This document shows positions 34,061 through 34,158 of a stretch of DNA of 64,000 bases, piece after piece. Position 1 is the first letter of the stretch, and each line of letters starts with the position of its first letter. The stretch lies in NCBI RefSeq assembly GCF_003334315.1, contig NZ_QOWR01000012.1; one strand, given 5' to 3'. Position numbers and translations under genes: made by a program. The notes under the pieces are model-generated. The model was not told the DNA's origin, made no database searches, and saw nothing but the letters and a program-made list of their open reading frames with translations. This stretch comes from Escherichia coli (GTDB lineage Bacteria; Pseudomonadota; Gammaproteobacteria; Enterobacterales; Enterobacteriaceae).

Positions 34061-34158
34061 GCCTGATGCGCTACGCTTATCAGGCCTACATTTTCTCCGC
34101 AATATATTGAATTTGCGCGGTTTGTAGGCCGGATAAGGCGTTCACGCCGCATCCGGCA
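34061..34158. repeat. BIME of RIP/RIB type: REP - IHF-like linker - REP
   Basis: gcctgatgcgctacgcttatcaggcctaca ... caatatattgaattt ... gtaggccggataaggcgttcacgccgcatccggca. Confidence 0.75.

Follow-up and report, generated by a model that had tools for sequence, protein, structure and literature searches.

The 64,000-nucleotide stretch of Escherichia coli DNA analyzed here (the window) is E. coli K-12 MG1655 sequence, and the corresponding position in NC_000913.3 is obtained by adding 781,524 to the window position. Inspection of the sequence confirmed two repeat elements in the window, at 34061..34158 and 50763..50861, which we refer to as copy A and copy B. Copy A follows uvrB (32002-34023, plus strand, with its stop codon at 34021-34023), and copy B follows rhlE (49347-50711, plus strand, with its stop codon at 50709-50711); both genes were checked against NC_000913.3. 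A preliminary description of this DNA had placed each element 3' of a plus-strand gene. That placement holds, and to it we add that each element also lies 3' of a minus-strand gene, yvcK (ybhK) to the right of copy A and ybiA to the right of copy B, such that both occupy gaps between convergent genes. The rhlE/ybiA gap also contains a perfect 9-bp G+C-rich hairpin (ATGCCGGGC TAT GCCCGGCAT, 50718-50738), which lies 7 nt past the rhlE stop codon, before copy B, and is without a T-run. Elsewhere in the window, a Moco (molybdenum cofactor) riboswitch is found upstream of moaA (35388-35532, plus strand, 103.6 bits), and positions 1-290 hold two near-identical plus-strand tRNA genes, 208 nt apart, the first of which is overlapped by a match to the RtT RNA model (7-174) that extends into the spacer.

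Each locus contains a single repeat unit, and neither is a tandem array. The unit consists, in order, of a short flank, a z1 REP, a conserved L linker, an inverted y REP, and a second flank, all described here on the plus strand. Alignment to the consensus of an 87-copy family (see below) delimits copy A in the uvrB/yvcK gap as a unit of ~147 nt at 34041..34187. It opens with a left flank motif, CTGATGACAAACGGAAAACA (34041..34060), that is conserved family-wide with the consensus CTGATGACAAACGCAAAATT. The z1-type REP, GCCTGATGCGCTACGCTTATCAGGCCTAC (34061..34089), is 97-100% identical across the family and forms a hairpin when folded as RNA; it is followed by the L linker (34090..34123), with an invariant core, GCAATATATTGAATTTGC, at 34099-34116. 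The inverted y-type REP, GTAGGCCGGATAAGGCGTTCACGCCGCATCCGGCA (34124..34158), likewise folds into a hairpin and partially matches the naRNA4 (REP) model, and the unit closes with a right flank motif (34159..34187) whose family consensus is ATGAACAAAGCGCACTTTGTCAACAATCTG. Copy B, delimited by the same family alignment, is a unit of ~149 nt in the rhlE/ybiA gap (50743..50891). Its z1-type REP (GTCTGATGCG...GGCCTAC, 50764..50792) differs from that of copy A by a G-to-T change at position 2, its L linker (50793..50827) carries the invariant core at 50802-50819, and its inverted y-type REP (50828..50862) also folds into an RNA hairpin. In both copies the y REP reads GTAGGCCGGATAAGGCGTT[C/T]ACGCCGCATCCGGCA (34124-34158 and 50828-50862), and the linkers are A+T-rich and 34-35 nt long.

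This organization identifies the class of the elements. BIME-1 elements are defined as z1 plus y REPs in single copy, separated by a long, well-conserved L linker that frequently contains an IHF site (PMC3333891); they are ~140 bp in size and vary in presence or absence among isolates (PMC1187871). The assignment of both elements to the RIP-type BIMEs in the preliminary description was right: each has inverted z1 and y REPs, a long conserved L linker, a single-copy arrangement, and a position at a gene 3' end, and both share the z1 REP, linker, inverted y REP architecture in the same orientation. The repeated unit is ~148 nt rather than 98 nt, with similarity extending beyond the REPs by ~20 nt on the left and ~30 nt on the right. 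This size, taken from the family alignment, agrees with three observations: other genomic copies, among the BLAST matches listed, align with 34038-34184; a natural allele of the copy A gap is shorter by ~154 nt; and the published size is ~140 bp. Taken as a whole, the evidence makes us highly confident that both intervals are ordinary BIME-1 (RIP/RIB) elements, a ~148-nt non-coding dispersed repeat. Catalogues of E. coli K-12 have included BIME-1/RIP elements since the early 1990s, and both copies are typical of them. Older K-12 GenBank records label such sites "RIP ... contains 2 REP sequences and 1 IHF site". The discovery value is thus small and the practical use lies in annotation, where a BIME-1 unit should be marked as ~148 nt and not as 98 nt.

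To place the two copies among their relatives, we assembled a family from an exact scan for the 18-mer core in ~100,000 species-representative genomes, which returned 118 stretches. By this exact match, the core with REPs on both sides was found in two genera, Escherichia (E. coli, E. albertii, E. whittamii, and two unnamed species) and Pseudocitrobacter. A few tiny or misbinned contigs with the core are probably contamination, and the remaining 18-mer matches are chance occurrences without REPs. The representatives of Salmonella, Citrobacter, Klebsiella, and E. fergusonii yielded no match to the exact core, in a search that would miss diverged linkers. The resulting alignment of 87 Escherichia and Pseudocitrobacter copies (copies A and B plus 85 others) gave a 148-nt consensus that reads CTGATGACAAACGCAAAATT, z1 REP, CATGATTTCT, GCAATATATTGAATTTGC, ATGATTTT, y REP, ATGAACAAAGCGCACTTTGTCAACAATCTG; identity to this consensus is 89% for copy A and 82% for copy B. 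Between copies A and B, the REPs and the core are near-identical, and the 8-10 nt on either side of the core are 44-50% identical. One set of copies is arranged differently: in Escherichia sp. MOD1-EC7003 (positions 389-1080 of the retrieved stretch), there are five linker cores with four spacings of 115 nt, and each unit comprises a z1 REP, a linker, a y REP, and a common flank motif. This is a tandem BIME-1-type array, in contrast with the description of BIME-1 as a single-copy element, and its layout points to a single motif serving as both the left and the right flank.

The preliminary description called the two elements near-identical. Aligned globally, the two intervals agree at 88 of 101 columns (87%); identity is 90% across the 154 columns of a wider MAFFT alignment, and the pair was recovered as a repeat with a start-to-start spacing of 16,703 nt. 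The similarity is not limited to the REP palindromes with unrelated linkers between them, the outcome that had been named as counting against the pair, since the 18-nt linker core is identical in the two copies. With up to 3 mismatches allowed, the core GCAATATATTGAATTTGC matches only at these two copies in the 64-kb window, compared to 0.10 matches expected by chance. The identity of 87-90% therefore stands, but a special status for the pair does not, as the two units are about as similar as the family median. Over the 148-nt unit in the 87-copy alignment, copies A and B are 76% identical, compared to a median of 78% for all pairs, and 66 of the other 85 copies equal or exceed copy B in their similarity to copy A. 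When identity was compared by sub-region, that of the pair was never above the family median, and in the right flank it was 0.41 against a median of 0.59. We also considered a pair-specific kinship of the two copies and rejected it, their identity being at or below the family median in all sub-regions. Because their identity lies at the family median, copies A and B are, judged by their sequences, ordinary family members with no special kinship. Likeness between two BIME-1 copies should accordingly not be taken for recent duplication.

These comparisons bear on the proposal, made in the preliminary description, that the two copies are substrates for ectopic recombination across ~16.6 kb. If they acted as direct repeats for RecA, recombination between them would delete or duplicate the 16.7-kb yvcK-moa-ybh-cecR-rhlE segment, and their direct orientation, 87-90% identity, and separation of 16,703 nt are compatible with such events. 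We queried 5,426 complete E. coli genomes with the exact hybrids expected from unequal crossing-over in the common core, and found the deletion junction (uvrB-hybrid RIP-ybiA) in 0 of 5,426 and the tandem-duplication junction (rhlE-hybrid RIP-yvcK) in 0 of 5,426. For recombination by RecA in E. coli, the minimal efficient processing segment is ~23-27 bp. The longest perfect runs common to the two copies are 27, 22, 18, and 16 nt, which puts even the 27-nt run at the RecA limit, and the mismatches around such runs would invite rejection by mismatch repair. Dozens of other family copies would moreover make equally good partners. We conclude that the recombination claim is unsupported and consider RecA-dependent exchange between these two copies highly improbable.

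Structural change does occur at both sites, in the form of element loss or replacement, IS621 insertion, and an IS-bracketed inversion, none of which is recombination between copy A and copy B. Copy A is in place at uvrB/yvcK in 3,677 of the 5,426 complete E. coli genomes, and copy B is in place at rhlE/ybiA in ~4,300 of the same 5,426; both loci are polymorphic for presence or absence of the element among strains. The uvrB/yvcK gap (34024-34214) has at least four alleles among E. coli genomes. In the short allele, found in strain CCUG 73778, ~154 nt are missing; a third allele carries an unrelated insert of ~115 nt containing CCCTCGCCCCTCCGGAGAGAGGGTTAGGGTGAGGGG, which may be another repeat family; and one strain has IS1 at ~34185, just to the right of the copy A unit. 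The uvrB copy has orthologs at this site in E. albertii and in two divergent E. coli lineages, so the copy is old. We first read the short allele as an empty insertion site, but because the element is orthologous in E. albertii, this allele may equally be a deletion. At the other locus, espX2, an effector gene, follows rhlE in O157:H7 genomes and replaces both the repeat and ybiA, and in strain F5446 the place of ybiA, between rhlE and dinG, is taken by a paaA2-parE toxin-antitoxin pair.

The insertion sequence IS621 (IS110 family) disrupts copy B at a defined position. Full-length matches at 99.3-99.7% identity to a query built as the predicted simple insertion were found in 138 of the 5,426 genomes, with IS621 at GGCCT|AC of the copy B z1 REP, that is, after GGCCT (50790). 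In 80 further genomes, IS621 connects the L-y half of copy B with the z2 REP of the ybiC/ybiJ BIME (~56059-56094), and the segment from ybiA to ybiE is inverted, one end lying in the copy B z1 REP and the other in that z2 REP. Strain C5 has both junctions, with its two IS621 copies in opposite orientation and bracketing an inversion of ~5.3 kb that contains ybiA-dinG-ybiB-hcxB-ybiE. The rearrangement at the rhlE copy is thus real and IS-mediated, and its partner is a different BIME. The rhlE copy might further be viewed as part of a REP-targeted rearrangement module, in which the bridge-RNA-guided IS621 recombinase recognizes GGCCT|AC of its z1 REP and inverts DNA between two REP targets, copy B and the z2 REP at ~56059-56094, so that the 5.3-kb inversion would have been made by the recombinase or would be reversible through it. 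We regard this extended reading as unlikely; ordinary RecA recombination between the two inverted IS copies is an alternative route to the same inversion. If the recombinase route were true, dispersed REPs would be natural landing and recombination sites through which one IS family inverts chromosomal segments.

Among 65 family copies with enough flanking DNA for naive ORF calling, 35 are located in convergent gaps, 28 between tandem genes (13 in one orientation and 15 in the other), and 2 between divergent genes. By the same ORF calling, 63 of the 65 adjoin at least one gene 3' end, and the BIME-1 family thus has a strong preference for gene 3' ends. REPs in 3' UTRs have been argued to act according to context, reducing read-through and protecting transcripts from decay; where REPs separate convergent genes, both genes tend to be more highly expressed, and the REPs often coincide with bidirectional terminators (bioRxiv 10.64898/2026.03.23.713779). 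In RNA folding, the REP hairpins of the two copies are strong (z = -4.4 for copy A and -3.1 to -3.6 for copy B). As part of a transcript read from either of the convergent genes, the pair of G+C-rich REP hairpins would act as 3'-UTR elements blocking 3'-5' decay, and would also damp read-through into the opposing gene. For these two copies we infer this RNA-level role from the family literature, as a generalization that depends on context. A separate terminator-like hairpin at 34191-34207, between copy A and yvcK, counts against such a role for copy A.

Convergent genes are also where positive supercoils would be expected to accumulate, and the preliminary description had suggested that the elements could bind gyrase. 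As DNA gyrase binding and cleavage sites, the copies would absorb the positive supercoils of convergent transcription; gyrase binds REP DNA and prefers y-type REPs (PMC6379681), of which each copy has one. In vivo cleavage by gyrase and over-representation of its sites have, however, been reported for BIME-2, the tandem arrays of z2 and y REPs, whereas copies A and B are single z1-L-y units, and in the literature BIME-1 shows lower gyrase affinity in gel shifts. Gyrase sites also correlate negatively with IHF-occupied sites (PMC6379681). The case for gyrase at these two copies is therefore weak, and we judge this function unlikely. We also compared the copies directly with BIME-2, which belongs to the same REP superfamily, y REP included, and of which REP325/naRNA4 is an example. 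BIME-2 has tandemly repeated z2 units and short S linkers that lack the IHF core; none of these features is found in copies A and B, which have a short z1 left unit, an L linker, and a single unit, so membership in BIME-2 was rejected and its strong gyrase binding does not apply to them. The window does contain two multi-REP BIME-2 arrays, at ~24264-24459 and ~56012-56136, within which Rfam naRNA4 (CssrE) scores above threshold at 24335-24405 (plus strand) and 56062-56132 (minus strand).

A different Rfam model raises the question of whether the linker is itself a gene. The 43-nt RF02751 model, ES036 (CssrF), covers the minus-strand linker and the first bases of the z1 REP in both copies, at 34082..34123 in copy A (43.4 bits) and 50785..50827 in copy B (43.3 bits), both on the minus strand and above the gathering score of 37.6. 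On this basis each copy could encode a small RNA of the ES036/CssrF family, transcribed from the minus strand, and the founding CssrF transcript was indeed detected by Northern blot from the dacB/yhbZ gap of Shigella flexneri (PMC3071730). The size of that transcript, ~290 nt (PMC3071730), is nonetheless far above the 43-nt model; no promoter-like sites were found in either gap; and the model matches the linker in 12 of 13 other family copies tested from E. coli and Pseudocitrobacter, always antisense to the z1-to-y direction. Covariation flanking the TGCAA/TTGCA palindrome of the linker is weak. Position +/-1 is T-A in 60 copies, T-G in 16, and C-G in 2, and at position +/-2, 20 of 82 copies pair, compared to 12 expected. 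We had considered an extended linker hairpin as well, and set it aside on the weakness of this pairing signal across 82 distinct copies, all of which were collected by exact core match. We therefore think a small-RNA gene at either copy very unlikely. RF02751 acts as a general detector of BIME-1 linkers, and because it matches 12 of 13 other copies it is, in effect, a BIME-1 linker model, whose matches here give no evidence of a small-RNA gene. Matches to ES036/CssrF at such sites should be annotated as "BIME-1 linker" and not as a small-RNA gene.

IHF interacts with the inter-REP sequence of BIME-1, according to a statement in PMC2817692 that cites Boccard & Prentki 1993. The preliminary description had found the linker to resemble an IHF site, a resemblance that holds in that the exact core of the family is present but fails in that neither linker contains the strict IHF consensus, WATCAANNNNTTR, without a mismatch. 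The closest sequence is a minus-strand 13-mer, ATTCAATATATTG, which occurs in both copies (34100..34112 in copy A and 50803..50815 in copy B) with one mismatch to WATCAANNNNTTR. Matches of this quality number 74 in the window compared to ~50 expected, and for this reason the one-mismatch match is not discriminating. A better argument is identity to the family core, because IHF binding has been published for that core. In the proposed arrangement the L linker would serve as the IHF site, with a minus strand that reads ACAAAA-N8-ATTCAA-TATA-TTG. Binding of IHF at copies A and B is thus plausible, on the strength of the published family-level work and the identical linker core. The two copies may differ in this respect. 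Compared with copy B and the consensus, copy A has a spacer that is shorter by 1 nt and a poorer A-tract, and on account of both it is predicted to bind IHF less well than copy B. Regarding genome-wide IHF data, the main texts of Prieto 2012 and Kasho 2021 contain nothing on REP or BIME, and uvrB, ybhK, rhlE, and ybiA are unmentioned in the supplements of Kasho 2021.

Most likely, the copies would have spread in a transposition-like manner, through cleavage of REPs by the REP-associated tyrosine transposase, and would then have been inherited vertically. In vitro, cleavage by this transposase has been reported for z1, z2, and y REPs and for linkers (PMC3333891). The same activity fits a view of the copies as selfish or neutral relics, that is, a non-autonomous, REPIN-like REP doublet lodged in permissive convergent gaps without a host function, in which case any IHF binding would be incidental. 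About one-third of E. coli genomes are without the uvrB copy and about one-fifth without the rhlE copy at these sites, with no sign of consequence, and copies do decay, as seen in one orthologous copy in which the y REP is partly deleted. Against this view, copies from two genera have the same linker core, with adjoining positions varying freely, an argument that is partly circular in that the copies were collected by the exact core. The placement of the family is skewed (54% convergent, 3% divergent), which selection and biased insertion could each explain. We hold the relic view to be a possibility of some weight, though a doubtful one. The preferred reading of both copies is that of ordinary BIME-1 elements, with an L linker that plausibly binds IHF.

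Among known systems, one comparison is with the H' site of lambda attP, whose IHF-site sequence we take to be CCAAAAAAGCATTGCTTATCAATTTGTTGCA. By hand count against that presumed sequence, the minus strand of copy B (CTACAAAAGCATGCAAATTCAATATATTGCA) matches H' without gaps at 21 of 31 positions, and the similarity is also seen in a gapped local alignment. In copy B and in the family consensus, the A-tract, 8 nt, an ATCAA-type hexamer, 4 nt, and TTG fall in register with H'. The difference is that copy B has ATTCAA in place of the TATCAA of H', and copy A aligns over the core alone. A second comparison is with REPINs, the REP doublets mobilized by RAYTs in Pseudomonas and others. In both systems, two inverted REPs and the sequence between them constitute one repeated unit, and mobilization is presumed to depend on a REP-associated tyrosine transposase. 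The E. coli unit differs in having a dedicated, conserved protein-binding linker and outer flank motifs, and its mobilization in vivo is presumed.

The closest system is BIME-1 itself, as named by Gilson, Bachellier, and Hofnung, which is the same element as the RIP of Oppenheim et al. 1993 and the RIB of Boccard & Prentki 1993. Both copies share with it the z1 and y REPs inverted tail-to-tail, the long conserved L linker with its putative IHF-type site, and a length of ~140-150 bp with flanks. They share, too, an extragenic location at the 3' ends of transcription units and presence or absence among isolates. Copy A departs from the standard form in a core-to-y-REP spacer that is 1 nt shorter and in a C...G that replaces T...A flanking the core, and copy B departs from it in the G-to-T change at position 2 of the z1 REP (GTCTGATGCG); nothing material sets either copy apart from BIME-1.
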